In this document: positions 18,490 through 52,804 of the stretch, one piece after another
Layout: every line of letters begins with the position of its first letter
How positions within the stretch are numbered: position 1 is the first letter of the stretch
Virus record (IMG/VR): IMGVR_UViG_3300050821_005343
Coordinates: 13,862 to 77,861 of that record
Strand: one strand, 5' to 3'
Source of the DNA: a virus
Length of the DNA stretch: 64,000 nucleotides
The notes under the pieces: generated by a model
What the model was told of the DNA's origin: nothing
The model's input: the letters and a program-made list of their open reading frames with translations, nothing else
The model's database searches: none
Position numbers and translations under genes: made by a program

Positions 18490-21432
18490 TTAATTGGCCT
18501 CATAAGCCCCGATGGAAGGCGGATTAGCCCATGCCTTGCCGGCGTGGTCAGCGATTGGCTGTTGCGGTCCCAAATTGGTCCCCGCCCCTATGATGCCTGG
18601 GGTGAAAGTGGCTGTGACGAATATCCAGTTTGGCGTGTCTGGCACGGCGCCCGCACATCCAGCAGTGCAAGACTTCCACACACCCGCGGGATGATGACCC
18701 TGGCCTGTGGGAAGATCTGAGGTAACGACCCCATACGTCCCGTCGGGTTGTCCTGTCGGAAGGTTGAAGGCTGTCTTGACGGTTGCGACGATAGGAACCG
18801 AAGTCCCGGCGAAGGTCGGGTTGGGCCGCAAGTTGATGACGCCGCTTGCCCCTACTGAACAAGCGCCCAGATCGGGGAACGAGTTCTCATTGCAGGGGTT
18901 GGCGAGCGGCACGGTGTAGCCCTGACCGCCACCGGGAGACGAGTTAGTCGCGGGCTGGAGCAGCGGGTTATAGGCGACGAATAGGGAGGAAACCCCTGGC
19001 ATGCCTGACCGGAAGTCCGTCTGCGTCCATGTGCTTAGGCCGATGTATTTCCCCAGAGTCGCACCAAAAGAACTGGCCCCACCGCCAATCGGGCAGTAAA
19101 CCTGAGAGTTCGAGCCGACTCCTGGCGGCAGGAAGGGGATGCTTAGATTAGTCTCGACCGTGCTTAAGTCGCCGGCAACAGGATCGCATAGGTTCGGGAT
19201 TTCTGCTCTCGCGTCGCGCGAAACACCGTCGCCGATGTTGTTGGCTAGCAGAGCGTGGAGTGGGCCTTTGCCGCCGCCTTTCGGCTGGTTTCCAACCTCG
19301 ACATCTTTGCCGAGTATGTCGTTATGAACTACAACATTGTATTGGCCGCTAATTCCTAGGCCGTTTGTTGACGCGACAACGATATTGTCAGCAACATAAT
19401 CCCCCCAATGGTTATGTTCCGTGGTGTTGATACCTTGCATGGTACGGGGGAAGTAGTTAGTCAGATCGGAGAATTGATAGAACTCATTCTCGATTGCCGC
19501 GTTGTTGAAGAAGGTATCGGTTGTCGCGGCTGATTCTCCACGCCCGTTAGTGTCTCCGTATTGTATACCGTCTTGGTGCGCCCATATCTCAGTTGGGTCA
19601 GAATAGTAGTTGTGAACGACCCAATTTCGATGAGTTGAGTATTCATCGATTCCGTCGCCCGACGCCCATTTTATTTTGTTGTTATATAGGACGGTGTTGG
19701 TTGTGTTGCCCATGCCGAGGCCGTCATATACATCGCGGATGATACTATCCTTCACGGACATGCATGTTGCCCCGACAAGAAGATTTGGGTGCGTCGGGTC
19801 AAAGCTGTGGGCAGTGTCTAACGCGCCGTGGAAAGATATCCCAGATACTGAGCCGCCGTCCCAATCGACACTGTTCCAAGCACCGGCAGGTGTTATCTTC
19901 ATTTGATCGGTGAAGGTGACTTTCTCGCCGGTCAGCGCGCGGGTCGTTCCGCTCCACGTGGGCGACGTTCCAACAGGGCATCCGCCTGTTTTGGTGGAGC
20001 TTCTCACTGCAAGGAATACCGGATCGCAGCCGGGGACGTTTGACGATAGGCCGGGGTAGTTCGTAGTCGGACAACCAGTGGCCGCGTCGGCGACTGGATC
20101 GCACGGCGCGATTGTCGCGACCAAGCCGTTTACGGCTATGACCTTAGACCCGCTTGGGATACCTGTGGAGGGAGCAATCGTTACCGACCCATTATGAAAG
20201 TACCCAGGAGACCACACGTAATAGCCTAATGGGGCGGGGGAAGACGTTGTGATGGTAGTTGAGTTAGCGGGCGCAGTCACAGTCAAGATCGGGGGGTCTT
20301 GCGCGGCGCGGGCCGAGATCACTGGCGATGCGGTTACGACCGTGCCGTCTGACAGCCCCCCGCTATTCGGATAACTGGAAGAAAACCACGGGTCTTCAGA
20401 ATGGCCAAGCCATCCTGAGACGTGGATATCCTCAAAAACGATATCTTTTCCGCTGGCGGAAACCGGGGGGTTGGCGCGATACTGCTCGACGTTGAAGCTC
20501 TTGAATAGATAGCCAGCAGCGCCGTTTTGGAGCAGGACTCTATGAAGGACCGGCCGCGTTGCTGCTGCCGGATCGCCCATGATCCACGTCCAAGCTACAG
20601 TCCCGTTCGCCGTCCCGTCGATTGTGCTATAGATGCCATTAGTTTCCGTTATGTCACCGATGGGGTGGGTAGCATCTCCCGGTTCGATGTAGATCGTATC
20701 GCCGGGTTTAATGATCTTACCAATACCAAAGAGCGCGCCTCCGGTGTAGCCTGTGCCGCCGTTGAAGATCGCCGAAACGTCCTTGAAAGGAGAGCCGGCG
20801 TGTCCGGTCGCGCCGGCGTCCTTGGTCGTCCCTTTGATCGGGTCAAAGTACCAGACGTGAGCCTGGTCGAGGTTTGGCGAGACAGGCGGAATGTCACAGC
20901 CGGGGTAGATCGCGTGGCCCTGCTGTAGGAAGTGCGCGGGCGAAACAGGGAGGACTGCGGCGGCGGGATTAGTAGTCCAATTGCTCGTCTCAAACGCCGG
21001 AGGAGCAACTGGCGCGGACGGCTCAATCGGGCCGAACCAATGGCTTGTCTGTGTGGTCGATCCGGTCAAACCATTAACCGTTTCGTCCAGCTCAATCGCT
21101 TGCCCGACGACAGCCGGCGTGGCCGAGACATCTACGGTGAGCGTCGAGCCGGAGCCAAGCGAGACTGTGGGCGCGTTGACCGTGTGCCAGTTGTAGGCCC
21201 GAGTAATGACTGAGCCCGTCCACTGCCCTGCCCCTGCCGTGAGCGTCAGCGTCGTTCCTTGGGCTACGGTGGACGTGCCATTGTTTGGATAATCAAGCCC
21301 GACGATCTCCGGGATGGCTGTATTGGCAGGAGCTAGATCTGCGCTGAGCGTAAACGCGGGAATGGAGGTAGGCGCAGCATGCGCCGCTGCACTTGCCGCA
21401 AACACGCACACCAATGCGATTAGCGCCCTCAC
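18490..21432 (-). CDS. Sec-exported parallel beta-helix (pectate-lyase-like) protein, 980 aa
   Basis: Signal MRALIALVCVFAASAAAHA; Ig-like start; WYFDP..GSPFKD..IKPGDTIYI; beta-helix repeats (GDGID, HQDGIQ); ends PSIGAYE. Confidence 0.75.
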   Translation of the reverse strand: MRALIALVCVFAASAAAHAAPTSIPAFTLSADLAPANTAIPEIVGLDYPNNGTSTVAQGTTLTLTAGAGQWTGSVITRAYNWHTVNAPTVSLGSGSTLTVDVSATPAVVGQAIELDETVNGLTGSTTQTSHWFGPIEPSAPVAPPAFETSNWTTNPAAAVLPVSPAHFLQQGHAIYPGCDIPPVSPNLDQAHVWYFDPIKGTTKDAGATGHAGSPFKDVSAIFNGGTGYTGGALFGIGKIIKPGDTIYIEPGDATHPIGDITETNGIYSTIDGTANGTVAWTWIMGDPAAATRPVLHRVLLQNGAAGYLFKSFNVEQYRANPPVSASGKDIVFEDIHVSGWLGHSEDPWFSSSYPNSGGLSDGTVVTASPVISARAAQDPPILTVTAPANSTTITTSSPAPLGYYVWSPGYFHNGSVTIAPSTGIPSGSKVIAVNGLVATIAPCDPVADAATGCPTTNYPGLSSNVPGCDPVFLAVRSSTKTGGCPVGTSPTWSGTTRALTGEKVTFTDQMKITPAGAWNSVDWDGGSVSGISFHGALDTAHSFDPTHPNLLVGATCMSVKDSIIRDVYDGLGMGNTTNTVLYNNKIKWASGDGIDEYSTHRNWVVHNYYSDPTEIWAHQDGIQYGDTNGRGESAATTDTFFNNAAIENEFYQFSDLTNYFPRTMQGINTTEHNHWGDYVADNIVVASTNGLGISGQYNVVVHNDILGKDVEVGNQPKGGGKGPLHALLANNIGDGVSRDARAEIPNLCDPVAGDLSTVETNLSIPFLPPGVGSNSQVYCPIGGGASSFGATLGKYIGLSTWTQTDFRSGMPGVSSLFVAYNPLLQPATNSSPGGGQGYTVPLANPCNENSFPDLGACSVGASGVINLRPNPTFAGTSVPIVATVKTAFNLPTGQPDGTYGVVTSDLPTGQGHHPAGVWKSCTAGCAGAVPDTPNWIFVTATFTPGIIGAGTNLGPQQPIADHAGKAWANPPSIGAYEAN

Positions 21433-21821
21433 GGTGCTGTTGCTCCAGTTCCGGCCGGGTAGGTCTGTGCGACGCCAGCCGCAACAAGCGCGAGGCTAAA
21501 TGTTGGCGCGCTAGCCGTACTTGGCACCGAAATATTGACCACCCGAAGTGCTGGGTCATTAATTGTTATACCGCTCGGCGTGGTTACCCAACCGACTGGA
21601 GACACGACACAGTTGAATATGATGGTTCCAGCAGGCGCGGCAGAGGCCAGACCAGATGCAGCCGCTGTGGGTGTACAAACCGTACCTGTCGAAGGCGGCC
21701 CGCTAAGAGTGAAGCTAGGGATATTGATTGAAGATACTTGCGCAGACGCGCTGCTAGCGCCGATGATAGATGCGGCGGCTATTGCTCGGATAACGCTTGC
21801 GGTCATTTTGAAATTCTCCAA
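21429..21821 (-). CDS. small Sec-exported two-Cys Ig-like subunit (paralogue of 52478..52804)
   Basis: Signal ..ASSASA|Q; PST..VC..AGTIIFNCVVSPVGW..; ends TAP. Confidence 0.75.
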   Translation of the reverse strand: MENFKMTASVIRAIAAASIIGASSASAQVSSINIPSFTLSGPPSTGTVCTPTAAASGLASAAPAGTIIFNCVVSPVGWVTTPSGITINDPALRVVNISVPSTASAPTFSLALVAAGVAQTYPAGTGATAP

Positions 21822-21834
21822 TGTTTGGGCGGAC

Positions 21835-23289
21835 CTACTTGGCGGTCATCAGAAGGGCGAGTGCGCGGCCGAACGGCTCGCGCTCTTTGTGGATGTTGAA
21901 TCTCTTGAGTATTTCAGCCATGAATTCTTCCCGCGGAAAGCCGGGGTGGCCGACGAACGGCGGGTAAAAATCAGTCGCAATGGCGAACCGCGCTCCCGGT
22001 CGCCCGTATGCCAGCATGTTGTCTAGGATTGAGCGCCAGCCGATTGCGTGGTCAATGGCGTTCCAGCAGATGACGGTATCGGCCCGCAGATTGGGAATGA
22101 GCTGCTCGGCTGGCTGGGAGTAAACCGTCACGCCTTCCCAATATTCCGTAGGGACGATTCCCTGATAGGCTAAGGCTAGCGGCTCGATAACCGCGCACGG
22201 GGCAAAGGGTGGACGCGGGCCGCAACCGATATCTAGGATGTCGCCAGTCGGCTCAATGAACTCCTTGACTTCGTTCCACTGGATGGTGAACCCAGGATCA
22301 GCAAGGTGTCCCGTAGGAACGTGCTCTTTCCACCAATCTAGTTCGAACGGCTGATGGATTTGATGCCACGCATCCATCGTGCGGAGATTGTCGGTCATGG
22401 TAGCCTTGTCGTCGACCCAGGTTTGGTGATTTCCCGGCGCCAGCGAATAGCGCGTGGCGCGGGTGCATGATTTACAGATACTCGTGCCAGCGTTGCCGCA
22501 TTTACGGTTCTCTGCTTGAAGCGACCGCATGACGTGGGAGTCGAACAGGCTCCAGTAGTCGCCCGTTAGCAGGTTGCCGATTACGTGCTTCATGGAATAG
22601 TCCATGCAGCACAGCACAACGTCGCCAGATGGGAGGACTACGTTCTGGTCGTAGAATGGCGTATAACTGCAGGATACAGGCGTGTCGTATTGGGGCGTAG
22701 CCTCGATGGGCTGCTCGCCAATTTGTGCGGTGTCAAGGCTACCGGCCCGCGTTAGGCCGACCCACCCGGCTAGTTCTCCGACAGCCGCCTTCAAGCGGTC
22801 GTGGACCTCTCCGCCCTTGTCCATCGTCATGGCTTGGAAATAGACGCGCTCGGTTTCTCCGAATTGCAGGAACTTCTTGAGGACTTTCCCGTATTCAGCT
22901 TTGTACCGCCAGCCGCGCATATTCCCCTTACTGTCGGGGAGGTGGAGGCAAAGAACCTCGACCTGATGCGCGTGCTTGTCTAAGAGCGCGATTATGCGCT
23001 CGGCGTCAGGGACCGTGATTCCGTAGAGGGTCGTATAGACCGCAACGCGATAACCGCTTTCCAGGGCGTGCTGGAGCATGTCCGTGCAGTCGTCGTTGCT
23101 CCACGGTTCGGCCATGCCGCTAAAGTCGATGCGGACGTAGGTAGGAACTTTGGATAGGATGACCTTGAAATTATCCAGACTCATATATTTGTCTGGGTCT
23201 TTACCGTAGGTGGTTCGTAGCGCGTCCTGTGGGCAGAAGGTGCATTTTAATGGACAGCCGACCATCGTGGTAATTTCGAGGGATGGCAA
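21835..23289 (-). CDS. radical SAM/SPASM + class I methyltransferase fusion
   Basis: CPLKCTFC; SPASM-like C..GDVVLCCMD..IGNL..CKSC; C-terminal ILDIGCGP. Confidence 0.88.
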   Translation of the reverse strand: MPSLEITTMVGCPLKCTFCPQDALRTTYGKDPDKYMSLDNFKVILSKVPTYVRIDFSGMAEPWSNDDCTDMLQHALESGYRVAVYTTLYGITVPDAERIIALLDKHAHQVEVLCLHLPDSKGNMRGWRYKAEYGKVLKKFLQFGETERVYFQAMTMDKGGEVHDRLKAAVGELAGWVGLTRAGSLDTAQIGEQPIEATPQYDTPVSCSYTPFYDQNVVLPSGDVVLCCMDYSMKHVIGNLLTGDYWSLFDSHVMRSLQAENRKCGNAGTSICKSCTRATRYSLAPGNHQTWVDDKATMTDNLRTMDAWHQIHQPFELDWWKEHVPTGHLADPGFTIQWNEVKEFIEPTGDILDIGCGPRPPFAPCAVIEPLALAYQGIVPTEYWEGVTVYSQPAEQLIPNLRADTVICWNAIDHAIGWRSILDNMLAYGRPGARFAIATDFYPPFVGHPGFPREEFMAEILKRFNIHKEREPFGRALALLMTAK

Positions 23290-23310
23290 ATTATGGCTCC
23301 AGGCGCAACT

Positions 23311-23362
23311 TTTAGCTTGACATGAATCGCATTAGTGCTATTGTGGGGGTGTTGAAACGGAG
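23311..23362 (+). promoter_or_regulatory. repeated moron promoter/RBS, copy 1
   Basis: TTTAGCTTGACATGAATCGCATTAGTGCTATTGTGG..TTGAAACGGAG. Confidence 0.75.
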
Positions 23363-23369
23363 CAAGCAG

Positions 23370-23540
23370 ATGAAAACAGGCTGGAGACTACAGGCTAAGG
23401 ACGGCGTACCGCACTTTCGCCTTATGACTAACGGCTGGCTATTGCGGCCGCTCGTAAGGGCTAATTGCGAAAGCTACGCCTATGTCGCGCGCATAGATCG
23501 AGGTACGGTGTTGCCGCTCCGGCGGCCAGTGTTTTTTTGA
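23370..23540 (+). CDS. small hypothetical protein (moron)
   Basis: ATG after GGAG; MKTGWRLQAKDG... Confidence 0.6.
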   Translation: MKTGWRLQAKDGVPHFRLMTNGWLLRPLVRANCESYAYVARIDRGTVLPLRRPVFF

Positions 23541-23587
23541 TGACCCCCGCCGAACTCATCTCATGGCGCAACGATAGGAGTAAGCAT

Positions 23588-24133
23588 ATGACCCTCTACA
23601 CAGTCACAGCGGGCAACGCCTACTTCTGGCAGAACTTAGCCGTCAGAGCCCATTCGAAATACCAAGCTGCGGCGGCGTTCCGCGCCTATCTAGCCGCGCC
23701 TGAGCAGCGGGCCGAGGAGGAGTACGAGCAGAAGCAAGGCAAGATGCTCGTTGGCGATGACGAGCCGACAGACCGCAACCTGTACGTCTACAAGTTCGAC
23801 GACGAAGACGTAGAAGAGACCGACCTGATTTCCCGTTACACGGGGAAGGTTGGAACTACTGTTTACGATGACCGACAGCGGCGGGAACGGTTGATGACTC
23901 CCCAACAACTAATAGACTGGCGCAAGCGCCTTGGCCTAACCGCCAAGGCAGCCGCCGAGCAGTTAGGGCTTAGCATAAACGGCTATGCCGCTTATGAGCG
24001 GGGGTATGTAGGACGAGGATCGGCTATGAAAAAGCGCATACCTCGCCCCATCCCAAGGCACGTCGCGCTGGCGTGCGAACGGCTAGAACAGTTGAAGGCA
24101 ACAGGAGAGATAGATGCCAATGTATCATGCTGA
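23588..24133 (+). CDS. acidic protein fused in frame to an XRE-HTH (HTH starts at 23894)
   Basis: AGGAG RBS before MTLYTV; MTPQQLIDWRKRLGLTAKAAAEQLGLS..YERG..IPRHVALAC. Confidence 0.7.
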   Translation: MTLYTVTAGNAYFWQNLAVRAHSKYQAAAAFRAYLAAPEQRAEEEYEQKQGKMLVGDDEPTDRNLYVYKFDDEDVEETDLISRYTGKVGTTVYDDRQRRERLMTPQQLIDWRKRLGLTAKAAAEQLGLSINGYAAYERGYVGRGSAMKKRIPRPIPRHVALACERLEQLKATGEIDANVSC

Positions 24134-24323
24134 ACCAAACCGCAGCGAACCAAACCGTTGGATGTGGTTTTCGGTAGAAACGCCGTCCGTATTCAAGGAA
24201 CACAAGCTTCCAGCCTCTAGCGCTGATTGGTCAACTGCCGATCAGCGCAAGTTCCGAGAACTTGAAACCCTAGCCGAAAACTATAGCACGCACATCCATC
24301 GATCAGGATATCGGCGTGGCTAA
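24114..24323 (+). CDS. small hypothetical protein
   Basis: AGGAG RBS; 69 aa. Confidence 0.5.
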   Translation: MPMYHAEPNRSEPNRWMWFSVETPSVFKEHKLPASSADWSTADQRKFRELETLAENYSTHIHRSGYRRG

Positions 24324-27300
24324 CTCCGCAGCCGCCGGCCGCCCAAACATCTCCGCCGTCCAGCCCGACATAGACCGTACAAACGGCGCTATCTCGCCCT
24401 TATATTTCTCCCAGCCGCGCCGGAACGTAACCCCGGCCGGCCACGGCTGGGCGCGGACGACGTGCTTGGCCGACGGCTCCATTGGCACCCCGCATAGGAT
24501 GATGCGCTCAAAGCCAAGCTTGCGGGCGATTTTGACCGAAAACAGGCCGCTTGAGCCGGCCCAGTCCTCGACGTGGTGCGTGACGTTCGGCCCGCTGCGG
24601 TGTGCCCAGACCTGAGATGGCGCCGGATGACCGTTGGCCTCACGGCGTTTAAGCCAGTCAGCTAGTTTGGTTGGGTGTAGGCTGACGGCGATGCAAGGGC
24701 CGGCCGCTTGTGGAATCATGTCGTTGATGACGAATCGGGTTACTTCGCAGCCGACGCAAAGCGCCTCGGCTTCGGCCAGCTCCTCTTTGACTCTCTCGGA
24801 GCCGCCGACCACGAGGGCGATCTTGCGGGTGGTGGGCGCGACCGGCGCGGCAACACGCCCCGGCTTTGTCGCCTCGAAGCACATGGACTCGATGCGGTTG
24901 AACTTGTCGCCAATGACGCGCCCATGGCCCTCCACGCCGCGCAGGGCGGAATGGCGGCTGATGCCCACCTGACACTGCTCAATCGCCTCAAAGCCAGCGT
25001 AGCGCAGCAGGTTGGACATTACGCTGGCGGTCCACGCCATCTGGTGCCCGTGAGAGAACAGGATAGCCTTAAGCGCGCCCTTTAGCGTTCCGTCACCTCC
25101 GAATTTCTTGGCAAAGTCGAAATAGGCTTGGTCCGCCATGTTGGCGATCTGCTCAACCGATGGCACGACCACTCGCAAAACGCCACCCGGAGCCAATACG
25201 CGGAACGCCTCTTCAAAGAATCCTATGGCTTGGTGGCATGAGACGTGCTCTATGCAGTGCTCAATGAAAATGTAATAGGCGCTATTTTCTGCCCACGGCA
25301 GCGGCTGGGTTACGTCTACGTCCGCGTCGTGATTTAGCCAGCCGGATAGCTTGTTTGTGCCGCAACCGAGATTGAGGAGGAGACCGGCTTCGACCGCCGG
25401 TAAGACCCCCTTCCCTTCTTCGGACGGACCACACGCGGTCGATACTTGGGGGACCGCAGATCCTTGGCTACCGGGTTCCTTTTTCGCTGACATCGCATCT
25501 TCAAAGAACCTATCCGTAGCCCACACGTCATTGTGGCAGTGGGTGATCCAGTCCAAGCCTAAACTCAAAACATTGTCGTGCGTAATCTGATGCTTGTCGC
25601 CCCTCACGGCTTTAATCGGCAACAGAAACACATCTGATTTGATCAAGTTCGCTATTACAATTTCAGGCGTCGGAGCGACCCGCCTAGCCTTCCAGTTGTA
25701 ATTCTGAATGAATCCTGAATCCCGGACATAAGCGGTCTTGAAAACCATTAGGCCGGTTTCAATCCAACCGGCTATGTCCTTCTTCATGCCGGATACTTTG
25801 GTCGTGCAGCACTCCCGCTGCGCCTGAAGCATTTGGTCGATGAGGCCGTCCACCGGAAGGCGCAGCAGGGAGTCGCCCTCGACGTGCGCGACGTAGGTAA
25901 ATCCCTCCTCGACGGCAATCTCCAGCCCCTTGCAGAAGGCGCGGCCCCAGCCGTCTTTGCCCCCGCGGCTGAGATGTCCGACATTGTCACCAAAGTCGAA
26001 AACTCGATATTGGACCGAAGGATGCTGCTTCTTCCATGCCTCGCTGACGAGGGGCAGCGGCGAGGCGCTGTCGACCAGCAAGAGCGGAGCGCCGGGGTTA
26101 AGCGCGCTGGTTAGCTCCAGCCATTGCTCAGTGAGCGTCTGGCGAGCATCGCTGTCGACGTAGGTTGTGGCGAAGATTAGGAGCGGGGAGGTCTGGGATC
26201 GTCGCTCCCCGCCCGCACAAGAAGCAATCACAGCGCCAAGATCCCCTTGGGTGTTCGCTGCGTATCCTGTGGCACCGTGTATATGCGCGAACTCGCGCAC
26301 TTTGTCAAGTGCCGATGGCATATCAATCCGCTTGTCGCAAGGATGCCGTTCTGTGTGACAGTCGCACGGATTGACTGGATCAATACCCAGCGTCGGCGTT
26401 AGGTGGGCGCCGGCCGCTTGTGTCGTGCGGAAGCTTTCCCTCCCGCCGTAGACGACAACCGAAGGCAGTCCGACCGCTTGCGCCAGGACCGGAGCAAACC
26501 CGGCATTGAAGAAACCAATGTCGGCAATCGAGAACAAAGCCGCCATCGTCTCGAAATCAAGCTCACCGCTGTGTAACTTAACGTCGGCTGGCTGTTCTTC
26601 GCCGACTATCCACTCCAGCTTCGGCTCAAGGTCAGCAATCGAGACAACGAAATACCCAGATCTAGCCGCTGCATAGAGCGCCGCATAGGCAGCCGAATCG
26701 GGGTTTCTGCTTTCACCGTTCCACTCCCGTCGACGAACAACCGGCCGGTAGAGCATAAGCGGCTTGCCGCCCGTGTCCCACCCGGCCCGCAGCGCCTCGG
26801 CCTTCGCGCGCCATTCGGCCGGGATCGGCAACGAGAAGTCGCCCCGCTTACCCGCTAAGCCGCACTCGGCCATCATCGTCTCGAGGATAGAGCCGTAAAT
26901 ATCTATTTGCTCTTTTTTGTACCAAAGCTTGACGCGCCGAGCGTCCCCCGGTTCACGCGATGGTACTTTGAATAAATGCTGCTCGCGCTCGATCGTCTTG
27001 GATTGCGCGCGTAGTCTCGTCGACTTGAATGTTAGGTGAAGTCCCTCGGCGACGAGATCATGGTAGAGCTGCCAGTGGCACGTCGATAGCCAAACCTCGT
27101 GGGTTTGCATCAGCTCGCGCACGACGGCGCGCTGGTGCAAATTGTCGCCGATTCCCCACATGCCGTCGATGACAATGGCGGGCTTGGGCGTTCCTGGCGC
27201 GACCGCAGGCAGGACGAAGGGCGGCTGGGTGTCAACCGCCGTCACAACCATGCCGGAAGAGCGAAGCCGGTCGGCCTCCTTATCGACTAGCTCTACACCC

Positions 27301-43543: not shown

Positions 43544-43546
43544 CCC

Positions 43547-44166: not shown

Positions 44167-45027
44167 TTAGTTTGACTTCCTTCCAGCACGGAGTTGCGGG
44201 CTGTCTCGGTCGGCTAGAAGAAAAGGCGAATCCCGGTCAGCGCGTAGGTTTATGTTGCGGGGTGGGACCACAATCTGGGGTCGTATTGAGAAAGCAAAGA
44301 TATCGGCAGTTTCAGTTAGCGACAGTTCTGCCTGATTGTCGTTAAATCCAGCGAAAGCAAAGGAATCGGCCGCTTCCGTGAGGGCGAACGAGACGGCGTT
44401 GGCGTTAAAGGTAACTAAGGCGAAAGCGTCAGGCGGCTCAGTGAACGCAAACGATGCGCTGATGATGTCGGACGCATTAAACGAAAAGACGTCTGGCTGC
44501 TCGGTGACGGCGAACGAAGCGCTATTGACATCAGATGCGGCGAAGGCGAAAGAGTCCGCAGTCTCTGTTACTGCGAACGATGCTTGGTTGGAATCAGTAG
44601 CCGCAAAAGCAAAGGCGTCTGCGGCTTCCGTAACCGCAAATGAAACGCTATTAAGATTGGCGGCAACGAAGGAGAATGCATCCGCCGCCTCTGCGACAGC
44701 TAAGGCTGCTTGGTTAACGTCCGTCGCGGCGAAAGCAAAGGTATCTGCGACTTCAGTGACTGCGAAGGATGCGTTATTTGCGTCAGAAGCCGCGAAAGCG
44801 AATGTGTCTGCGGCTTCAGTAACGGAGAATGATGCGCTGTTAACATCCGTCGCGGCAATGGAAAAAGTATCAGCAGGCTCCGTGACGGCAACGGACGCAT
44901 TGTTGACATCTGCGCCGACGAAAGAAAAAGTATCAGACGGCTCTGTGAGCGCCAGGGTCGCCTGATTAGCGGGCGACGAGGCAAGAGAGCTTACCGGCGC
45001 TTCTGATACTGCTTCTAGCCCAAGCAT
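44167..45027 (-). CDS. head/neck fibre-like protein with ~11 tandem 21-aa repeats
   Basis: Consensus xASFAVTExADxFAFAAxDxN; S/T/A-rich. Confidence 0.75.
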   Translation of the reverse strand: MLGLEAVSEAPVSSLASSPANQATLALTEPSDTFSFVGADVNNASVAVTEPADTFSIAATDVNSASFSVTEAADTFAFAASDANNASFAVTEVADTFAFAATDVNQAALAVAEAADAFSFVAANLNSVSFAVTEAADAFAFAATDSNQASFAVTETADSFAFAASDVNSASFAVTEQPDVFSFNASDIISASFAFTEPPDAFALVTFNANAVSFALTEAADSFAFAGFNDNQAELSLTETADIFAFSIRPQIVVPPRNINLRADRDSPFLLADRDSPQLRAGRKSN

Positions 45028-45044
45028 GGCAGCCCCTGCTTAGG

Positions 45045-45965
45045 TTAGTGTTGGTACCAAGACTTTAGGGTGGCTGCAATGGCGGCTGTTTGCGTCCCGA
45101 TAGCTCCTGTATTGAAATCTATAAATATGCCTACATTTGTATAGCCAGACGTTCCTAAATAGCCAGAAGATTTTGCTACTGTAAACAACTGGATAAAACT
45201 TACCCCATCAACTGAATTGGAGAACGTTACATTAGTCCCGTCGTCGCTAACTCGGAAATAAACCTCTGATGGCGAATATTGGAAAAACACCGGCCCGTAA
45301 TCAGTCGCGGTAAATGTTGTCGCGTTTGAATAATGCTCAACTACAAGTTTGTTTACAATTGGTGCCGAATTGGTAACAAATACTTCCATCGCCTGGTATT
45401 TTGTCCCGTCTGTCCATCCCATGCCAAACGTATTATTACCATCCGACGGCCCGTAAACACTAAGTGTAGCATCTATTGTGTACGGGGTTGATGGGGACGC
45501 AATCGTCATGCCCCTCAATATAATGCTGTTCTGACTCGCCGTTTCCTTTAGAAATGGACCTATCGGACTGTCGACAAGACTCGTAGTGCCCGCAAAATTT
45601 CGCTGCGTCCAGTTGGCTGCTAGTGGAGGGGCTACGCGAGGCGGGTGGCGCAGCGCCGAGGCCGGCTCCGTCAGAAAGACGGTGCTGGTGCCGGTAAGGC
45701 TGACAAGGACTCCGGGACCACTTGAGCCGTCCAACACATTCGCAGCCGTTCGCGTTAGCGTTGTCCCACTCAGAGTATAGGTGCTGGCGCCCTGTATTTC
45801 CCAACCTGTGCCGTTGCCGCTAATGATGCAAATATTGCACTGGTTGCCGTTGCCGACGACGGCAAACGATTGGAACCCCGTCGCCGCCCCAGCAAGGGTC
45901 AGCGTGCCGGTTCCTGTTGTCGCGGTCGTTTCTTTGACGCGATCCGCAATGACTAGGCCGGTCAT
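45045..45965 (-). CDS. fibre protein with lectin-like C-terminal domain
   Basis: ADRVKETTATTGTGTLTLAGAATGFQSF N-domain; AT-rich ConA-like C-terminus. Confidence 0.65.
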   Translation of the reverse strand: MTGLVIADRVKETTATTGTGTLTLAGAATGFQSFAVVGNGNQCNICIISGNGTGWEIQGASTYTLSGTTLTRTAANVLDGSSGPGVLVSLTGTSTVFLTEPASALRHPPRVAPPLAANWTQRNFAGTTSLVDSPIGPFLKETASQNSIILRGMTIASPSTPYTIDATLSVYGPSDGNNTFGMGWTDGTKYQAMEVFVTNSAPIVNKLVVEHYSNATTFTATDYGPVFFQYSPSEVYFRVSDDGTNVTFSNSVDGVSFIQLFTVAKSSGYLGTSGYTNVGIFIDFNTGAIGTQTAAIAATLKSWYQH

Positions 45966-45968
45966 TGG

Positions 45969-46394
45969 TTACGGCCCAGGCGCGGTCGGGACGATCTGCG
46001 ACGTCGACACCCAATCGGCTATTACCTGGTCAAGCGCCGGAACTGGTTTAGGATTTGGGTCTGTCACAATATCGAAGAAGTAAGTAATTGATGTGATACC
46101 AATACCTGAGATGGTGACTGGGATGCTGGTCGACGCCAGCACTAATGGCGTCAGTTGGATGCGATAAGCTACACCCAAAGCCGGATTCTGTACTACCATA
46201 ACAGCCCCAAGACTATTCGGCAGTCCGCTAGTTACTGCGGGATTAGAACCGGCGGGAGGAGTCGTGCTACTTACGCCATTCGTGACGAAGGTAAGCGGCG
46301 GCGAGGTCCAGACTTTGTCGTTGAATATTACAAGATTTGCCATGAGGATCTCTCCGCTTATAGGATTGCCGGAAACCGAGGACTGAGAAGGCAT
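45969..46394 (-). CDS. virion-associated hypothetical protein
   Basis: S/T/P/V-rich; probable start MANLV. Confidence 0.55.
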   Translation of the reverse strand: MPSQSSVSGNPISGEILMANLVIFNDKVWTSPPLTFVTNGVSSTTPPAGSNPAVTSGLPNSLGAVMVVQNPALGVAYRIQLTPLVLASTSIPVTISGIGITSITYFFDIVTDPNPKPVPALDQVIADWVSTSQIVPTAPGP

Positions 46395-46400
46395 TACGCG

Positions 46401-46814
46401 CTACGGGCTGGTAATAGTTCCCGAGGTGACGCTGACCGGAATGCCGGTCGAAAACGTCGTTGTGGTTACAATGATGCTCGTCGCGCTGGTGCCGACCGTG
46501 AGTCCGCTAACGACGGTATTGCCGGCGCTGTCACGCAATTCAGCCAGAGCCGCCGTGCCGTTGGCGGCTGGAGTTGCTGAGAGCGGTGTGCCCTGCAGCG
46601 TCGCCACTTTTGAAGCAACCGTGAAGGGGGGCGTGGAAGTCAGCGTGACGGTAGCCAGCACGCCCGTAGCGCCGGAAAGCCCAGAGGTGCCGATGACGAG
46701 CAAGCCACCTCCAGCAGTCTGACCATTGACCGAGACGCCCGCCGCAGTGCCGGTGGCGTTATAGGTTTGAGTAAGCCGGGCATTGGCCGCGGCGGTAGAA
46801 TAGGCGATAGCCAT
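46401..46814 (-). CDS. head fibre / decoration structural protein
   Basis: YSTAAANARL..LATVTL..GTAALAELRDSAG..LTVGTS..VSVTSGTIT. Confidence 0.65.
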   Translation of the reverse strand: MAIAYSTAAANARLTQTYNATGTAAGVSVNGQTAGGGLLVIGTSGLSGATGVLATVTLTSTPPFTVASKVATLQGTPLSATPAANGTAALAELRDSAGNTVVSGLTVGTSATSIIVTTTTFSTGIPVSVTSGTITSP

Positions 46815-46818
46815 GACC

Positions 46819-47127
46819 TTAGCCCTCTATGGGTTGTTTTGGAGGACGCCCACGACGAGGCGCTATAGTGACGGCCTCGTCTGGGTCCGCGTGAAGAACG
46901 GCCGGAATGTCAACCGGCTGGACACGCTGCGGCTTCACCACCGGATCTCGTTCCGTAATCTTGAGATCCGGCCGGATGGCGCGCTTTAAGATGGAAACCA
47001 CATGCTCTGCGAGCTTCACGCCCACGCGGGTCTCGCCGGGGTCGATGCTGATGGGCTTAAGATTGCTAATCCCATCATAGAATGTGCGCCGACTGGCGGT
47101 CGGGTTGTGAATATCGCAGAGGATCAT
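46819..47127 (-). CDS. capsid-adjacent small protein (paralogue of the N-domain of 24303..27395)
   Basis: IHNPTASRRTFYD..IDPGETRVGVKL; C-terminal AT-hook-like RRGRPPK. Confidence 0.7.
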   Translation of the reverse strand: MILCDIHNPTASRRTFYDGISNLKPISIDPGETRVGVKLAEHVVSILKRAIRPDLKITERDPVVKPQRVQPVDIPAVLHADPDEAVTIAPRRGRPPKQPIEG

Positions 47128-47135
47128 GTGTTTGC

Positions 47136-48122
47136 TCAGCTAATGCCGTCGAGATACAGACAGGCATTGGGGCGACGGAACTCGACCGAACCGACGCGGA
47201 GATAGCCCGGAATATCAAAAGTCATCGGTCCGGTCTGCCAAACGGGCAGGAAGCGGAAGGGCGCCGGAACGTGCATCCTGACGATGCCGCGATCGTTGCG
47301 GTAGACAACGCCACGCCCGCCGCCGCTAGCCGAAGCGGTGTCGAGGTTAAGCGTCTGCCGAATCGTCAGCGGACGGTTGAACGTCATGGTGTAGAAGTTG
47401 TGCTTCTGCAAATATTCCAAAGCAGAGATAGGAGTATTTGGGATACGGGTATTTGCCAAAGCCTGCATCGCCGCAACCGGCAGAAGCACGGTGTCGGCAT
47501 ATTCAACAGTCTGCGAGTTAACCTGAATCTGGGTCAACGCATTCTGCACGTCCGCGACAATCTGGTCCGCAGTCTTGGCAGACCAAAGCGGCGAAGAGTT
47601 CGTGCCGTTTGCCGCAGCGTTCATGATCGGAACGCTGGTGTTGTTGAACAATCCGGTGACGCCCTTCTGGGTGTCGCCAACGCGCACCAGACGGTCGATG
47701 AACTCCTCAGAGGCGCGCCGAGCCGCTTCCGCGCGCTCTGCCGTGAGGTTCAGGCCGGGGATCATCATCGCCTGGCCGATTTCCTCGAGCGTGTAGCGGT
47801 AGCCAATGCCGGCCATCTCGACGCCCTGTTCGCGCTGGAAGCGATTGATATCGGCCATCGGAATGTTAGCCGACATGCCCGAAATCCAGCCGGCTTCACC
47901 AACACGGTCTAGACCATAGTAAGTGATGCTTTTCGCCCACTCACCGGCCGAGGTGTCGATGCTAATAATCTGCGGATACATGATTTCCGGATAGAGAACC
48001 CGGAAGACTTCAGCCTCGATATACGTGACTTCGGACTGTAGGAAAGAAAGCGCTTGCTGATTGTCTTTGACATAGAAACTGTCAGACAGGGCGGTGCCGC
48101 CGCCGTCGCGGAAACTATACAT
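47136..48122 (-). CDS. major capsid protein (DUF2184 / HK97 fold)
   Basis: AGGAG RBS; start MYSFRD; FLQSEVTYIE..GYRYTLEEI..GLFN..DTVLLP..G.VEFRRP. Confidence 0.9.
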   Translation of the reverse strand: MYSFRDGGGTALSDSFYVKDNQQALSFLQSEVTYIEAEVFRVLYPEIMYPQIISIDTSAGEWAKSITYYGLDRVGEAGWISGMSANIPMADINRFQREQGVEMAGIGYRYTLEEIGQAMMIPGLNLTAERAEAARRASEEFIDRLVRVGDTQKGVTGLFNNTSVPIMNAAANGTNSSPLWSAKTADQIVADVQNALTQIQVNSQTVEYADTVLLPVAAMQALANTRIPNTPISALEYLQKHNFYTMTFNRPLTIRQTLNLDTASASGGGRGVVYRNDRGIVRMHVPAPFRFLPVWQTGPMTFDIPGYLRVGSVEFRRPNACLYLDGIS

Positions 48123-48257
48123 TTTGTATTTCTCCTGGCCCGCGGCTCTTAGGCGCAGGGCTGAAATGTGAATGGGGGTTTGTGATGCAAAAACTTGCGT
48201 ATGACGCAACGTCTTACGCAAGCCTGTAGGTTTAGTTGCGTGGGCGCGAGCTTAGGT

Positions 48258-48785
48258 TCAGCTCATGATGCCGAGGCGAAGGGTGGCGAGGCCGGCGGAA
48301 GTTGTAAGTTCGCCAGCGGGGCGCGGCAGATGGGTCTCCCAACGCGAGCCTGCAATGGCGACGGCATTGGAGATGCCAGAGTTGCCAAGCGCGCCAGTGA
48401 CCGAGTTGAAATAGCCCTGCGTGCCGATAGCAACGGCAGTGGCCGGAGCAACCCAGACGTCGCCGAAGGTCAGAACGGAGCAGTTGTCGCCGTCGCCGTA
48501 CTTGTCCGTGAATTGGCCAGCAACGATGCCGGCAAGGTTCGGGAGGGTCGGGTCGGCCAGTGTAATGCCGACAAACACGCTGCCGGAAGTCTCGCCAACG
48601 GCAACCGACTTATCGCCATGCGTGCCGCCTTGGCACACTGCGATACCGAAGCCGATGCCTGTGCCGGCCACATCGTCAGCGATGCGGGCGTCAACGTTAA
48701 AATTGGCCATCGTGGCAACCGTGCCAAGCTGGGCGACCGGCTCGTACTGGATGTACGTGGTCTGAAGGGGAGCGGGAGTGATCAT
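48258..48785 (-). CDS. head decoration / cement protein
   Basis: IGFGIAV..FVGIT..Y..GD..SVLTFGDVWV; between scaffold and capsid genes. Confidence 0.8.
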   Translation of the reverse strand: MITPAPLQTTYIQYEPVAQLGTVATMANFNVDARIADDVAGTGIGFGIAVCQGGTHGDKSVAVGETSGSVFVGITLADPTLPNLAGIVAGQFTDKYGDGDNCSVLTFGDVWVAPATAVAIGTQGYFNSVTGALGNSGISNAVAIAGSRWETHLPRPAGELTTSAGLATLRLGIMS

Positions 48786-48887
48786 TTTTGGAATTTCCTA
48801 AGAAGTTGAGCGCAATGAACCAACCCGCGCCGCGAGGCGCAGGGCTTGGCCTGCGTGAAGGTGGGAAGGGTGCGGCTGTTGGCGCCT

Positions 48888-50177
48888 TTAGGCGATCTTG
48901 CGACCGTCCGCGTCGTAGGACTTCGGGAACCGCATGCGGTCGACCATCAGGGCATGAGCCTCGTCCCGAAGGCGGACGCCTTCGCTGCGAGCATCGCCGA
49001 CGACAGTGGTGCTGCGCGTATGGCTGCCAAGAGCATCGGCAAGCCGGCTTGTGCCGCCGTTGGCCGCAGCCGCCGTCAGAGCAACGAACGCGCCGGCCAC
49101 AGCCGCTTCGTTCATGTCCTTGACCGTTGCATCGCCGAGCTTGGCTGCAACTGCGGCGAGCTTGATTTCGGCAACCGACTTCCCGTCAAAAGGGAACTTG
49201 GCGTCGAGCACCTTGCGGGCGGCATCCTTGACCGTCTCGCGGTCGCGCAGCATGGCGTCGAGCGCTGCAGGAGTCACAGCGGCGTCAGCGAGTTGCTTCT
49301 TGAGGACCGCGATTTCGCCGGCAGCGGCGTCGAACTTAGCCTTGGCGTCGTCGCAATCGGCCTTGTTCGCCTTATCCTTCTTGTCCATATCGTCTTCGTC
49401 GTCCTTCGCCTTTTTCTCGGCGTCCTTGAGTTTCGCCTTGATCGAGGAGAATGCGGTATTCATGTTGCTTGCCGACAGCTCGTCGGCGAACTCGACGGTC
49501 ACGCCGTCAAAAGCTGCAGTGATGGGCATTTTATATTTCCTGGTTGTTGAGAGAATGACGGGCTTGCCGTCGGTTTGGGATGATTTAGAATCACCGGGAA
49601 GAACGTCTGCGAGTCCGGGAAAGACAGCGTCGACGTTTTTAAGTTCATCGCCAAAGCGCAGCTTTTCGCCGCCTCTGGCCTGCGGTACGAAAGCCAAATG
49701 GTTGGCTCGGATCTTGCGCTGAACGCCGTCGTAAGCTTCGCCCTTGGGCGTAACGCCAGCCGTCCAATCGATGTCAGTGGTATAGCCCATCGACAATTCG
49801 CAGGCATCGCCGCTATCGTAGGCGTCTATTGTTGCCTGATCCATCAGCGTGATTGGAACGGAAACATAGTCTCCGTCGCGCACGATCGGGTCTGTGGTCT
49901 GCCCTTTGGCGTATTTCTTCCAGTTCTTACTGTCGACCATAACGGGCGGGTGGGTCAGCGTTACTGGCCGGTGCGCCATAGAATGCATGGCGTCAACGTG
50001 AAAGACCTCTTCGGCCGGACGATAGAGCGTGACCTTAGCCTTGTCGGGCTGGCCGACCTCGCAGCCCTGGTAGACTTGGACTCCCGTGCGCGCGACTTTA
50101 GCGTGGGCCGCCAGATAGCCGCTTTCTGATCTGTGGACGCCGTCGAGGACGAAGGCGTCGTGGAGTTGTGTTGACAT
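48888..50177 (-). CDS. prohead protease/scaffold (DUF2213)
   Basis: GYL..ARTGVQ.Y..YRPAEEVF..PVTLTHP..ELSMGY..QRKIRANHLA.V..ARGG, then coiled coil. Confidence 0.9.
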   Translation of the reverse strand: MSTQLHDAFVLDGVHRSESGYLAAHAKVARTGVQVYQGCEVGQPDKAKVTLYRPAEEVFHVDAMHSMAHRPVTLTHPPVMVDSKNWKKYAKGQTTDPIVRDGDYVSVPITLMDQATIDAYDSGDACELSMGYTTDIDWTAGVTPKGEAYDGVQRKIRANHLAFVPQARGGEKLRFGDELKNVDAVFPGLADVLPGDSKSSQTDGKPVILSTTRKYKMPITAAFDGVTVEFADELSASNMNTAFSSIKAKLKDAEKKAKDDEDDMDKKDKANKADCDDAKAKFDAAAGEIAVLKKQLADAAVTPAALDAMLRDRETVKDAARKVLDAKFPFDGKSVAEIKLAAVAAKLGDATVKDMNEAAVAGAFVALTAAAANGGTSRLADALGSHTRSTTVVGDARSEGVRLRDEAHALMVDRMRFPKSYDADGRKIA

Positions 50178-50230
50178 CGCCCTGCTTTCAAGATATAGCG
50201 TGGTATGCAATTTTTAGGAGGAAAAAAAGA

Positions 50231-50464
50231 ATGAAGGGCACAATATGCGTCAAATGCCAACATCATGAGTATCTGACAGTGGTCGGCTGGTATTTGTGCA
50301 AAGCGCCGCAGATTCTATCTGATCTTGAGATGGACTGGGTTGAAGGAATCGCATATCCCAGACGTGGTCAATTATGCAAGGATATCAACAAGGACGGGAA
50401 CTGCCCTTATTTTGCAGACATCGGAGCGGGGCCGCGTCAGGCGGATGCGGCGCCCGCGCCGTGA
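50231..50464 (+). CDS. small Cys-rich moron protein
   Basis: AGGAGG RBS; CVKC..C..C...NKDGNCPYF. Confidence 0.7.
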   Translation: MKGTICVKCQHHEYLTVVGWYLCKAPQILSDLEMDWVEGIAYPRRGQLCKDINKDGNCPYFADIGAGPRQADAAPAP

Positions 50465-50494
50465 CTGCCGCCTCAGACCTTAGGATGGTGTAAA

Positions 50495-50692
50495 ATGGGC
50501 ACGACAGTTTGGGCGGTTTGGGTCAAATACGAAGAGAAAGAAGGCTGGCTTTTAATGAACGTCTTCCTCTATGAGGGCCTTGCTGAGGATTACATCCGGC
50601 GGGTTTCACTCAAAGAGTCGACTAAATACCAGATCACGACTACCGACCTTATTCGACCACTGGTTTCGGTTTCTTATTCCGCGGCGGATTAG
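50495..50692 (+). CDS. small moron protein
   Basis: 65 aa, co-oriented with 50231. Confidence 0.55.
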   Translation: MGTTVWAVWVKYEEKEGWLLMNVFLYEGLAEDYIRRVSLKESTKYQITTTDLIRPLVSVSYSAAD

Positions 50693-50819
50693 GTTCCTGC
50701 GGCACATGGAAGTTATAAAGAAACGCCGCCTCTTCCTCCGCCGACTTCAATTCTATCTTTAGTTTCCCCAGTTCTTCTCGCTGACGCTTGATGATCCTGG
50801 CTTGCGTGGAGTAGCTCAT
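50649..50819 (-). CDS. 56-aa coiled-coil protein
   Basis: Manual translation MSYSTQARIIKRQREELGKLKIELKSAEEE..; GGGGAGG RBS. Confidence 0.5.
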   Translation of the reverse strand: MSYSTQARIIKRQREELGKLKIELKSAEEEAAFLYNFHVPQEPNPPRNKKPKPVVE

Positions 50820-50847
50820 GCCCTCCCCCGGAATTATTACTTTTGGT

Positions 50848-52476
50848 TCAGTACCCGCAGGGCTTGGTGACGAGACCAGAGTTCTCGGTGATGCTCACGC
50901 CGTTCCAATGCAGATAGACGATCCCCTTGAGCCAAGTCGGATAATCCGGGTTGGGCGCGCATGTTATGGACGGAAGCTGATAGCCCTTACCGGATGTCCC
51001 GCTGGCAGTTGGGACAAGATCGCTGATGACGCTAGGTGCCGTCAGCGTGCCCGTCGTCGCTCTCCAGCCCATGCACTGCGTAGTGTTCTCAAAACCGGAG
51101 CAATTGGGAACCCCTTGCCGATTCGCCAACAAATCTGCCGTGTTCGTGTAGAGCGGATTCGCATAGGTGTTCGTCCCCAATTCGCCTGACGTTGCAGGCG
51201 TGAATGCCGCCGCGCTGAATGGTTCGGAACCGCTATTGCAAACGGCATTACCGGGGCAGATAGTGGCTGCTCCAGAGAAGAAATTCCCGCTATTCGTCAG
51301 AGTGGCGTTCTGCTGAGCAACCTCGAAAGCATACACCACATGGCCCCCAGATGATGTAGCAAGGGGTTGGTAGGCGAGGTTGTTCTGTATCGTTATGTGC
51401 CACAACATCGGGTTGGTTGTCGAATTCAGGTTGATCTCTGCGTCTGAATTGTCTGAGCCGGTGTTCATGTCATTCTTGAAGCACGTATTGTTATAGAGTT
51501 TGATCGTTGGCGTGCTAGTGGAATTTGTTTGCTCGAAGACTTGGATGCAGTTTCTGTCGGCTGAGTATCCAATGTTGTTCGAATAGACCCCTTGAGAGCT
51601 AACATTATGCCTGTCCCATGTATCGGCCATATAGTCTTCTGTGTCCGAATTGCTTCGGCAGCCGACGTTGGCATTGGCATACGAGAAATTGCCGTTGATG
51701 AAGAAGTGGGTGCCAGGGAGAGTGTCAAAGACCCCCGGCCCGACCACGTCGATCGCGGCCAGACAGATCGGGTCTTGCGCCGAGTTCCGAGCGATCATGC
51801 CGACTACGGCGAAGTAGTCCACTCCGACTGCGCCGGTTTGCCCGTTGTCATCAGTATCGGCGGCTTGGAGACTGTCGGCCGAAATGTCGTTGATGAACGC
51901 AATATGGTGGAGAATCACGCCATTGGCGTTCGATTCATAGCACCGGCCTTTAGGCACTCCACCCGCGCCAGCGGCTAGGCTAGGGTTGCAGTAGAAACCC
52001 TCCATCGCCCAGTTTGATGAATTTATAAAGACCGCGTCCGTGATGCCATTAACTGGAAGCTTGGTCGTGAGCTGGCAGTCCCCGACACTAGCGCCACCGC
52101 AAAGAACGACCGCGAAATAGATGCCGCCTTTCCCGTCGATTCCGCCCATGGTCGAAGGGCAGTTGGAGACAACGCCGCTTGGACCTTGCTGCGGGTAGCT
52201 CCCCGCCGCAGCTATGACCACATCGCCACAGTTGACGTTGTGATTTGTCGCCACCAACCAAGGGCCATGGCCGCCACCAGTCGTCGGCGCAAGTCCGTCG
52301 TTGTTGTCGTTTCCCGTCGGAGAGGCGAAATAGGTGTGCAATGCGGTAAATGGGACACTCGCCGTACCGGCGGGCGGGCTGCCCGAAGACACCGTCAGCG
52401 TAACGCCTAGTTGCGCAGCCGTGGCCACGCTGGCAACCAAGATGCTGACCAGCGTAATAATTATTCTAGTAAACAT
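50848..52476 (-). CDS. Sec-exported Cys-rich parallel beta-helix protein
   Basis: Signal MFTRIIITLVSILVASVATA; YFASPTGNDNNDG..GPW..GDVVIAAAGSY; Asn-ladder repeats. Confidence 0.75.
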   Translation of the reverse strand: MFTRIIITLVSILVASVATAAQLGVTLTVSSGSPPAGTASVPFTALHTYFASPTGNDNNDGLAPTTGGGHGPWLVATNHNVNCGDVVIAAAGSYPQQGPSGVVSNCPSTMGGIDGKGGIYFAVVLCGGASVGDCQLTTKLPVNGITDAVFINSSNWAMEGFYCNPSLAAGAGGVPKGRCYESNANGVILHHIAFINDISADSLQAADTDDNGQTGAVGVDYFAVVGMIARNSAQDPICLAAIDVVGPGVFDTLPGTHFFINGNFSYANANVGCRSNSDTEDYMADTWDRHNVSSQGVYSNNIGYSADRNCIQVFEQTNSTSTPTIKLYNNTCFKNDMNTGSDNSDAEINLNSTTNPMLWHITIQNNLAYQPLATSSGGHVVYAFEVAQQNATLTNSGNFFSGAATICPGNAVCNSGSEPFSAAAFTPATSGELGTNTYANPLYTNTADLLANRQGVPNCSGFENTTQCMGWRATTGTLTAPSVISDLVPTASGTSGKGYQLPSITCAPNPDYPTWLKGIVYLHWNGVSITENSGLVTKPCGY

Positions 52477-52477
52477 A

Positions 52478-52804
52478 TTACGGCGTTGCGGTGATCGATA
52501 CCGCATAGGTTCCAACGGCAAGAGCCGTTGCGCCTACATTCAGAGCGGAGCCAGATAGAGCGAACGCCGACGCATTCGCACCTGATAGGGCAAGCGCTCC
52601 AGACCAGCCGGTGGGCGTCACAGAAATATTGCAGATATTAGTTCCAGCGGCGAGGGGTCCAGTAAGCGTGTATGTCGTTGATGCACCGCACGTAACCGTT
52701 GTAGATGGGGCGCTGTTGATTATGATCGAGAGCGAGGTTGTGGTCGCTTGGGCGGGAACCGCCGCAAAGGCTAGAAATGCTACGCTAGCAAGAAATTTCT
52801 TCAT
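52478..52804 (-). CDS. small Sec-exported two-Cys Ig-like subunit (paralogue of 21429..21821)
   Basis: Signal MKKFLASVAFLAFAAVPAQA; PSTTVTC..AGTNICNISVTPTGW; ends ATP. Confidence 0.8.
   Translation of the reverse strand: MKKFLASVAFLAFAAVPAQATTTSLSIIINSAPSTTVTCGASTTYTLTGPLAAGTNICNISVTPTGWSGALALSGANASAFALSGSALNVGATALAVGTYAVSITATP

Follow-up and report, generated by a model that had tools for sequence, protein, structure and literature searches.

Two phage gene pairs as putative plug-and-socket docking systems for exported beta-helix enzymes

The stretch of DNA analysed here (the window, 64,000 nucleotides) comprises bases 13862-77861 of the complete IMG/VR virus record IMGVR_UViG_3300050821_005343, which belongs to a soil phage, is 77,861 bp long and has direct terminal repeats. 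It carries two pairs of genes, pair A and pair B, each of which encodes a small exported protein followed by a large exported protein with a beta-helix. The sequences argue, with a probability that we put at about 0.6, that each pair is a chaperone-free plug-and-socket (donor-strand) docking of an exported glycan enzyme. The small protein would be a cadherin/He_PIG-like sandwich of the immunoglobulin (Ig) type that is one strand short, its end at strand F and a proline leaving a socket, and the large protein, once its leader is cleaved, would supply the missing G strand as its first element (the plug), with a short linker behind it. A preliminary description of this DNA had proposed that the small proteins polymerise by donor-strand complementation and that the large partners join the resulting fibres through the same strand. 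Within this proposal, the strand-deficient Ig domain with a donor-type strand at its own N-terminus, and the large protein with the same strand, are supported by a register shift of the small proteins, by colinearity of pair B with fused relatives and by the pairing of genes in family A; the fibre itself is more doubtful.

Small proteins that are probably one strand short

All four open reading frames (ORFs) of the two pairs are present on the minus strand, as previously described. Small A is an exported protein of 125 residues (21429..21806). Its ORF is readable from a TTG at 21821, but the ATG at 21806 is the likelier start, since it has a GGAG 9 nucleotides upstream and the database copy P0001 is 125 residues long. 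It is made up of a signal peptide (21741-21806), the plug strand INIPSFTLSG (21699-21728) and, by the family alignment, a probable G-less cadherin-like socket domain with the C-terminus ...TAP (21432-21698). Likewise, small B is an exported protein of 108 residues (52478..52804) with a signal peptide (52745-52804), the N-terminal G-like strand SLSIIINS (52712-52735) and a probable G-less cadherin-like socket domain ending in ...TATP (52481-52711), which is delimited by the register of its profile and by a structural model.

Pairwise BLASTP relates small A to small B by a match of 15 residues only (E 0.002). The homology claimed for them is confirmed by comparison of the family profiles with hhalign (probability 99.2%, E 6e-20), and hidden Markov models (HMMs) of the two mature parts cross-match (E 7e-5 and 3e-6) among the 1099 six-frame ORFs of the phage. 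Both families have in common two conserved cysteines and an invariant C-terminal proline. The small-A family includes 43 homologues with the invariant residues C49, C71, W78 and P130, and the small-B family includes 138 cluster representatives at E <= 1e-3, most of which are stand-alone proteins of 105-120 residues with a leader. The same final proline is found in 40 of 40 aligned small-A members and in 50 of 50 aligned small-B members. Together with more than 240 homologues of large B, these families are widespread in soil and peat metagenomes.

At E <= 0.1, no Pfam family was found for small A or small B, and none was common among 50 members of the small-B family. PHROGs gave no match for any of the four proteins and searches of PDB sequences returned nothing meaningful. 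A scan for loci in genome contigs with alignment A1 had no match, and one of viral contigs with alignment A3 found only a relative of 97% identity. Searches with phmmer revealed that the small-B domain also occurs as tandem repeats in cadherin-like, He_PIG and Big_9 proteins. For example, P0064 is annotated with He_PIG, Big_9 and Cadherin_5 and P0072 with Cadherin, and the small-B HMM matches each repeat of the tandem cadherin-like relatives. By profile similarity, the small proteins belong to the cadherin-like/He_PIG superfamily of Ig domains.

The AlphaFold2 model of small B, built on the family alignment, has a predicted local distance difference test (pLDDT) score of 89, and that of small A, at 61, is too poor to use. 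The small B model aligns with many extracellular cadherin (EC) domains in VIA-align with Z scores of 6-7 over 75-80 residues, where values below 8 can reflect a common arrangement. Foldseek searches with the small-protein models gave E values of at least 0.07, among them weak hits to Big_2, cadherin-like and decoration-protein folds. The C-terminus of the small B model falls at residue 81-87 of single EC domains of about 100 residues (2wbx_A, 1..87 of 102; 5jyl_C, 5..82 of 96), and hence the model stops before their last strand.

The register of the missing strand is best seen in the tandem relatives, in which each repeat runs from strand A to strand F, followed by a turn, the G strand and a linker of the DxNExP type. 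On these proteins, the HMM of mature small B starts at the G strand of one repeat, crosses its linker and extends as far as strand F of the following one. Repeats recur every 91-94 residues in P0047, against 87 residues for stand-alone mature small B, and the difference corresponds to an F-G turn of about 7 residues. The end of strand F is the precise endpoint of the stand-alone small proteins and of the C-terminal copies (...TATP, ...TAP). The small proteins thus appear, from sequence and model, to consist of seven strands in the shifted order G'-A-B-C-D-E-F, their own G being missing. The full calcium-type linker is not kept in them and is reduced to NSAP or GPP, with only 2-4 residues separating G' from strand A. 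In an Ig sandwich, the G strand runs parallel to strand A along the whole domain. With such a short linker, this topology implies that the N-terminal strand could not complete its own domain in the canonical manner.

The domain of small B, likewise ending in ...TP, also closes larger proteins of 302-1109 residues, with signal peptides in three of five. These five proteins (P0065, P0068, P0100, P0168 and P0181) terminate in a G-less socket (...ATP or ...AVP); the signal peptides belong to P0065, P0068 and P0168, and none is evident in P0100 and P0181. The 1109-residue P0068 has a DUF3383 region at its N-terminus and the socket at its C-terminus.

Partners with a putative plug and the pairing of genes

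Large A is an exported protein of 980 residues (18490..21432, minus strand) in which a signal peptide (21376-21432) is followed by the plug strand TSIPAFTLSA (21340-21369), an extra Ig-like domain directly after this strand (about 20953-21339) and a right-handed beta-helix (about 18493-20946). Large B is an exported protein of 542 residues (50848..52476, minus strand) with a signal peptide (52414-52476) and the plug strand LGVTLTVSS (52384-52410), a few residues after which the conserved helix start PFTALHTYF is found. Structural matches in the Atlas agree with the earlier assignment of both large proteins as beta-helices, which are probably right-handed and of the pectate-lyase fold. Residues 163-980 of large A match pectate-lyase-type beta-helices with template modelling (TM) scores of 0.75-0.77 by target, and large B matches Pel9A/DUF1565/NosD clusters with feature scores of 0.96-0.98 and TM scores of 0.5-0.7. 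In Pfam, Beta_helix is found for large A under the cut-off (E 0.014), and large B has no match. The beta-helices would act as glycan-active enzymes. BLASTP detected no homology between large A and large B, and tblastn of large A against 50,697 records of cultured phages gave no match. Hence the two pairs can be called paralogous, as had been suggested, for their small members by family homology, but not for their large members.

The Sec-type leaders reported on all four proteins stand on heuristic judgement, each having an n-region with K/R, a hydrophobic core of 11-14 residues and an AxA-type site. The leader is variable and the mature part is conserved in the alignments of both small families, as is typical where a signal peptide is cleaved off. 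The sequence '...FTL' had prompted a consideration of type IV prepilin processing; this was rejected, since the leaders with their AxA sites are of the ordinary Sec kind and the motif does not lead into a hydrophobic helix. Besides the two conserved cysteines of each small protein, there are 12 cysteines in mature large A and 16 in large B, 10 of the latter being conserved in its family. As each of the four proteins has conserved cysteines, an extracytoplasmic site of folding would fit, and disulfide formation would be a plain reason for export.

The genes of each pair are tightly coupled. In pair A, the GTG start of large A overlaps the stop of small A by 4 nucleotides (GTGA), and in pair B one base lies between the stop of small B and the ATG of large B. 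The likeness of INIPSFTLSG and TSIPAFTLSA in pair A, noted previously, is real and not due to chance: a permissive regular expression for the family-A motif, hydrophobic-x-[VIT]-P-x-F-T-L, had 13 matches in 505,312 six-frame residues, 12 of which are mature N-termini of small-A homologues or of their downstream partners. In six of the seven distinct loci, the next gene overlaps the stop of the small-A homologue and encodes a leader followed by the motif of that homologue; L003 is the sole locus without a partner. The folds of the family-A partners are unrelated and include the 980-residue beta-helix of the window, another beta-helix with a linker of eight glycines, GH16-like and propeller-like proteins, and Ig-like proteins of 126-131 residues. 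As the leaders of small and large proteins are unrelated and yet the 8-10-residue motif is kept across these cargo folds, selection would act on the mature peptide. The plug of small A is as conserved as its core and near-identical to the plug of its partner. No fused single-chain form of pair A was found.

Locus L005 (2919-8573, the same as L011) has four consecutive genes with signal peptides, encoding in order an 896-residue protein, a 109-residue coiled-coil protein with a tail of PAPP repeats, a small-A homologue and a beta-helix partner with a plug and eight glycines. Many large-A homologues (P0305-P0325) have other short tags after the leader, such as ...VVIGHHGGG, ...NPSHHKGG and ...FLHHGAAG, followed by Gly-rich linkers. 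Such tags may be plugs for other socket types.

In family B, the evidence comes from fusion. The large-B homologues are present in phage contigs and in genomes of Acidobacteriaceae, Alphaproteobacteria and others, and nearly all of them have a leader and a variable N-terminal part. Three of them (622-635 residues) hold a small-B-like domain at residues 27-112 (HMM, E 5e-10 to 1e-8), and three more look fused likewise by eye. The domain of the fused homologues is complete, with the F strand followed by a turn and the G strand, after which a short linker leads to the helix start PFTALHTY. When all are aligned together, small B matches the fused Ig domain as far as F, and the start of mature large B (Q-LGVTLTVSS-GS...) aligns with the fused G strand (Q-AETIVGS-SGS...) at an equal distance from PFTALHTY. 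Small B and mature large B are thus colinear with the fused proteins, and pair B would correspond to a single-chain enzyme cut in the F-G turn of its Ig domain. In this comparison of sequences, the downstream half of the cut enzyme has gained a signal peptide of its own.

Conservation of the pairing in homologous loci, another point of interest in the preliminary description, is thus found in family A, and in family B it is restricted to a lineage, most large-B homologues being unpaired. A small-B-like gene lies upstream of a large-B homologue only in L024 and L052 among 16 further viral and 36 bacterial loci. The ORF of L024 (2648-2962) ends at strand F (...SYSITLSAS); capsid-region genes lie just upstream of it, and the gene of an exported large-B homologue comes after it. 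In L052 (2226-4650), a prophage-like region of an alphaproteobacterial metagenome-assembled genome, the genes occupy the same slot as pair B, between the head morphogenesis and DUF2213 protease genes; two near-identical tandem small-B genes are followed there by a large-B homologue split into three frames. This duplication is possibly an assembly artefact, given the repeated segments and frameshifts nearby.

A docking model and its alternatives

The following sequence of events may be envisaged. Both proteins would be exported by Sec, and their conserved cysteines presumably form disulfides. The plug of the large protein would then complete the fold of the small protein in trans to give a complex of binder and enzyme. 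The small protein's own N-terminal strand, lying so close to strand A, would be unable to fill its own socket canonically. With less certainty, this strand might instead occupy the socket of another copy, giving head-to-tail chains that resemble a tandem cadherin array, with the enzyme capping the chain at the socket end. If the partner's plug fits the socket, then the near-identical plug of the family-A small protein should fit the socket of another copy. Plugs are always at the extreme mature N-terminus and sockets always at the extreme C-terminus, as would be expected from a cut in the F-G hairpin, where an N-terminus made by signal peptidase would adjoin the free C-terminus of the socket. 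As the two pairs use different strand sequences, they should be orthogonal. The likeliest role would be that of a disulfide-stabilised, Ig-tethered depolymerase which, once matured outside the cytoplasm, attacks polysaccharide of the envelope or matrix near lysis; the timing is suggested by the late operons in which the genes lie, apparently with no separate promoters.

Several observations weigh against this docking. Small partners are absent from 14 of the 16 further viral and 35 of the 36 bacterial large-B loci, and the unpartnered large-B homologues still begin with a short strand and a Gly-rich linker. In L024, a signal peptide is evident on the partner but not on the small-B-like ORF. 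Residues 21-35 of small B are modelled in the monomer at a pLDDT of 86-90 without any partner. The fused homologues keep an N-terminal G-like strand though their domain has its own G; such a strand on an already complete domain may be an ordinary part of the domain and not a donor, and the idea of chains or fibres is weaker for it. The leaders were assigned by a heuristic n/h/c layout, and the split-Ig docking as a whole is drawn from sequences and models. A complex prediction with three copies of mature small B (ipSAE 0.27 and 0.21 against a mark of 0.42, with no controls) counts neither for nor against binding.

The best-placed rival goes further than docking. It holds, as the preliminary description did, that the small proteins polymerise with themselves by strand donation into long fibres, which carry the enzyme at one tip and sit on the cell surface or on virions after release, and it is possible, although we would not bet on it. 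Every small protein would combine a plug with a socket, and, given the near-identity of the two family-A motifs, a socket that takes the partner's plug should also take the strand of the small protein. The linker of 2-4 residues between plug and strand A rules out canonical self-completion, on this reading of the sequence. Two tandem small-B genes precede the enzyme gene in L052, and chaperone-free donor-strand fibres are established elsewhere (PMC9715654; 10.1101/2024.12.30.630787; 10.1101/2022.03.14.484220). However, homo-oligomers have no direct support, the N-terminal strand sits on a complete domain in the fused homologues, and the L052 duplication is perhaps an artefact. Moreover, the phage genome has no anchor, usher or chaperone. 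Virions are assembled in the cytoplasm, and nothing connects the proteins with them. Chains of small proteins are a possible but tentative extension of the docking, judged from sequence features. It is more doubtful that the pairs make two orthogonal, self-assembling, non-covalent cadherin-like rods whose subunits are linked head to tail by G strands, each rod being capped by its cognate glycan-degrading beta-helix, matured outside the cytoplasm and deployed at lysis, possibly plugging into socket-ended host or virion proteins.

The small proteins could alternatively be complete, monomeric, carbohydrate-binding Ig modules, with no strand exchange and with an N-terminal likeness that stems from ancestry or modular recombination. 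Many phages have Ig-like domains, be they stand-alone or appended, the weak matches to Big_2, cadherin-like and decoration-protein folds would agree with this, and small B is modelled confidently as a monomer. Such a module is nevertheless unlikely, because the chain of every family member ends at strand F with the invariant proline, the fused relatives show an extra turn and G strand exactly where the N-terminus of the partner aligns, and the motif is kept behind unrelated leaders and across unrelated cargo, which argues for selection on the mature peptide.

A further alternative, which seems quite unlikely, is that there is no binding between the small and large proteins and the motif is read by another component, such as a host secretion or anchoring machine or socket-ended host proteins. 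Beyond this phage, larger exported proteins do end in sockets; unpartnered large-A and large-B homologues, among them those with ...HHGGG tags, keep short strands and Gly-rich linkers; and large-B homologues are common in the genomes of Acidobacteriaceae and Alphaproteobacteria. Against this, six of the seven family-A loci have the small gene tightly coupled to a plug-bearing gene, fused single-chain proteins are colinear with pair B, and the different strand sequences of the two pairs fit cognate partners better than a single receptor. Finally, beta-helix enzymes of phage late regions are usually tailspikes, but conventional virion tailspikes or fibres with hydrophobic N-termini mistaken for signal peptides are very improbable here, as the proteins match no tail family of PHROG or Pfam and lack a virion-anchor domain at the N-terminus, signal peptides stand in the anchor's place, hundreds of homologues, some of them on bacterial chromosomes, retain the canonical n/h/c leader, and the mature chains have many conserved cysteines.

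If the plug-and-socket docking is correct, then donor-strand complementation, otherwise a feature of pili and a few matrix fibres, would be used by phages to attach interchangeable secreted enzymes to a small carrier of the Ig type with neither chaperone nor usher. It would also explain why some phage depolymerase-like beta-helices bear signal peptides instead of virion anchors. An extreme C-terminal socket ending in proline next to an extreme mature N-terminal plug would give a rule for finding partners in metagenomes, and the pairs could be a source of naturally orthogonal split-domain tags for protein assembly.

Genomic setting and known systems

The phage is only distantly related by its portal protein to phages of Proteobacteria (identity up to 36%). 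A match to the tyrosine integrase family (PF00589, 33 bits, over the cut-off) at about 9917-10285 of the window, inside 9815-10978 on the minus strand, makes a temperate life style possible. Pair B is flanked by a minor head (morphogenesis) gene and a DUF2213 prohead protease gene. Pair A is flanked by a gene for a radical S-adenosylmethionine (SAM)/SPASM-methyltransferase and a gene for a 347-residue protein, after which a lysozyme gene follows. Both pairs and their neighbours are all on the minus strand with minimal spacing, and a consensus scan for promoters and terminators around the pairs found no signal exceeding that of shuffled sequences. By this arrangement, the pair genes would be members of late operons with no evident promoters of their own.

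The enzyme directly upstream of small A (21835..23289, minus strand, 484 residues) is by family models a fusion of radical SAM, SPASM and class I methyltransferase domains. The gene is not conserved beside small-A homologues at other loci, and a link of pair A to it resembling the biosynthesis of ribosomally synthesised and post-translationally modified peptides was rejected for this reason. The 347-residue protein between large A and the lysozyme (17376-18419, minus strand) is rich in lysine, isoleucine and asparagine and has no Pfam or PHROG match. The gap between large B and the prohead protease gene is 637 nucleotides and is occupied by two small ORFs on the opposite strand (50168-50692, plus strand; 98 and 65 residues, the first being Cys-rich).

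Full-text searches of the available literature found no precedent for a phage-encoded donor-strand system. Donor-strand complementation and exchange are typical of the chaperone-usher pilins (Fim, Pap, Caf1, Saf). As predicted for the small proteins described here, the pilus subunit is a Sec-exported, Ig-like domain without a C-terminal G strand, which receives this strand from the N-terminal extension of another subunit, and a specialised tip protein joins via the same interaction. The earlier comparison with chaperone-usher and TasA systems is one of the proposed mechanism and not of family membership. The complete 77.9-kb phage genome has no match at E <= 1 to PF00345 (PapD-like chaperone) or PF00577 (usher), and no match to PF12389 (Peptidase_M73, TasA/camelysin). 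The socket domain is cadherin/He_PIG-like instead of belonging to a fimbrial Pfam family, and it is encoded by a phage. The polarity would be reversed too, as a tip adhesin of the FimH type has a socket only and the enzyme here a plug only.

Closest in logic are the archaeal threads (PMC9715654), the Pyrodictium cannulae (10.1101/2024.12.30.630787) and TasA (10.1101/2022.03.14.484220), which form chaperone-free donor-strand fibres. In all of these, secreted beta-sandwich subunits lend an N-terminal strand with no dedicated chaperone. No sequence relationship to them was detected and their fold family is different; polymerisation is conjectural in the phage pairs, and enzymes that share the strand, present here, are no described feature there.

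The tandem cadherin-like, He_PIG and Big_9 proteins are homologous to the small proteins by profile and probably by fold, and a small protein has the strands of one repeat. Unlike the repeats, which run from A to G, the small proteins would have the register G-A-B-C-D-E-F, stand alone with their own signal peptide and lack the full DxNDN calcium linker, of which ...NSAP or ...GPP is left.

A small beta-sandwich receptor and a short tag are also known from the cohesin-dockerin pairs of cellulosomes and from SpyTag/SpyCatcher. The phage pairs differ from these in that a split domain would be completed by a strand, with no dockerin or cohesin families and no indication of isopeptide chemistry. 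They resemble them in the small receptor, in the short tag carried by variable glycan enzymes, and in one receptor family serving many types of cargo.

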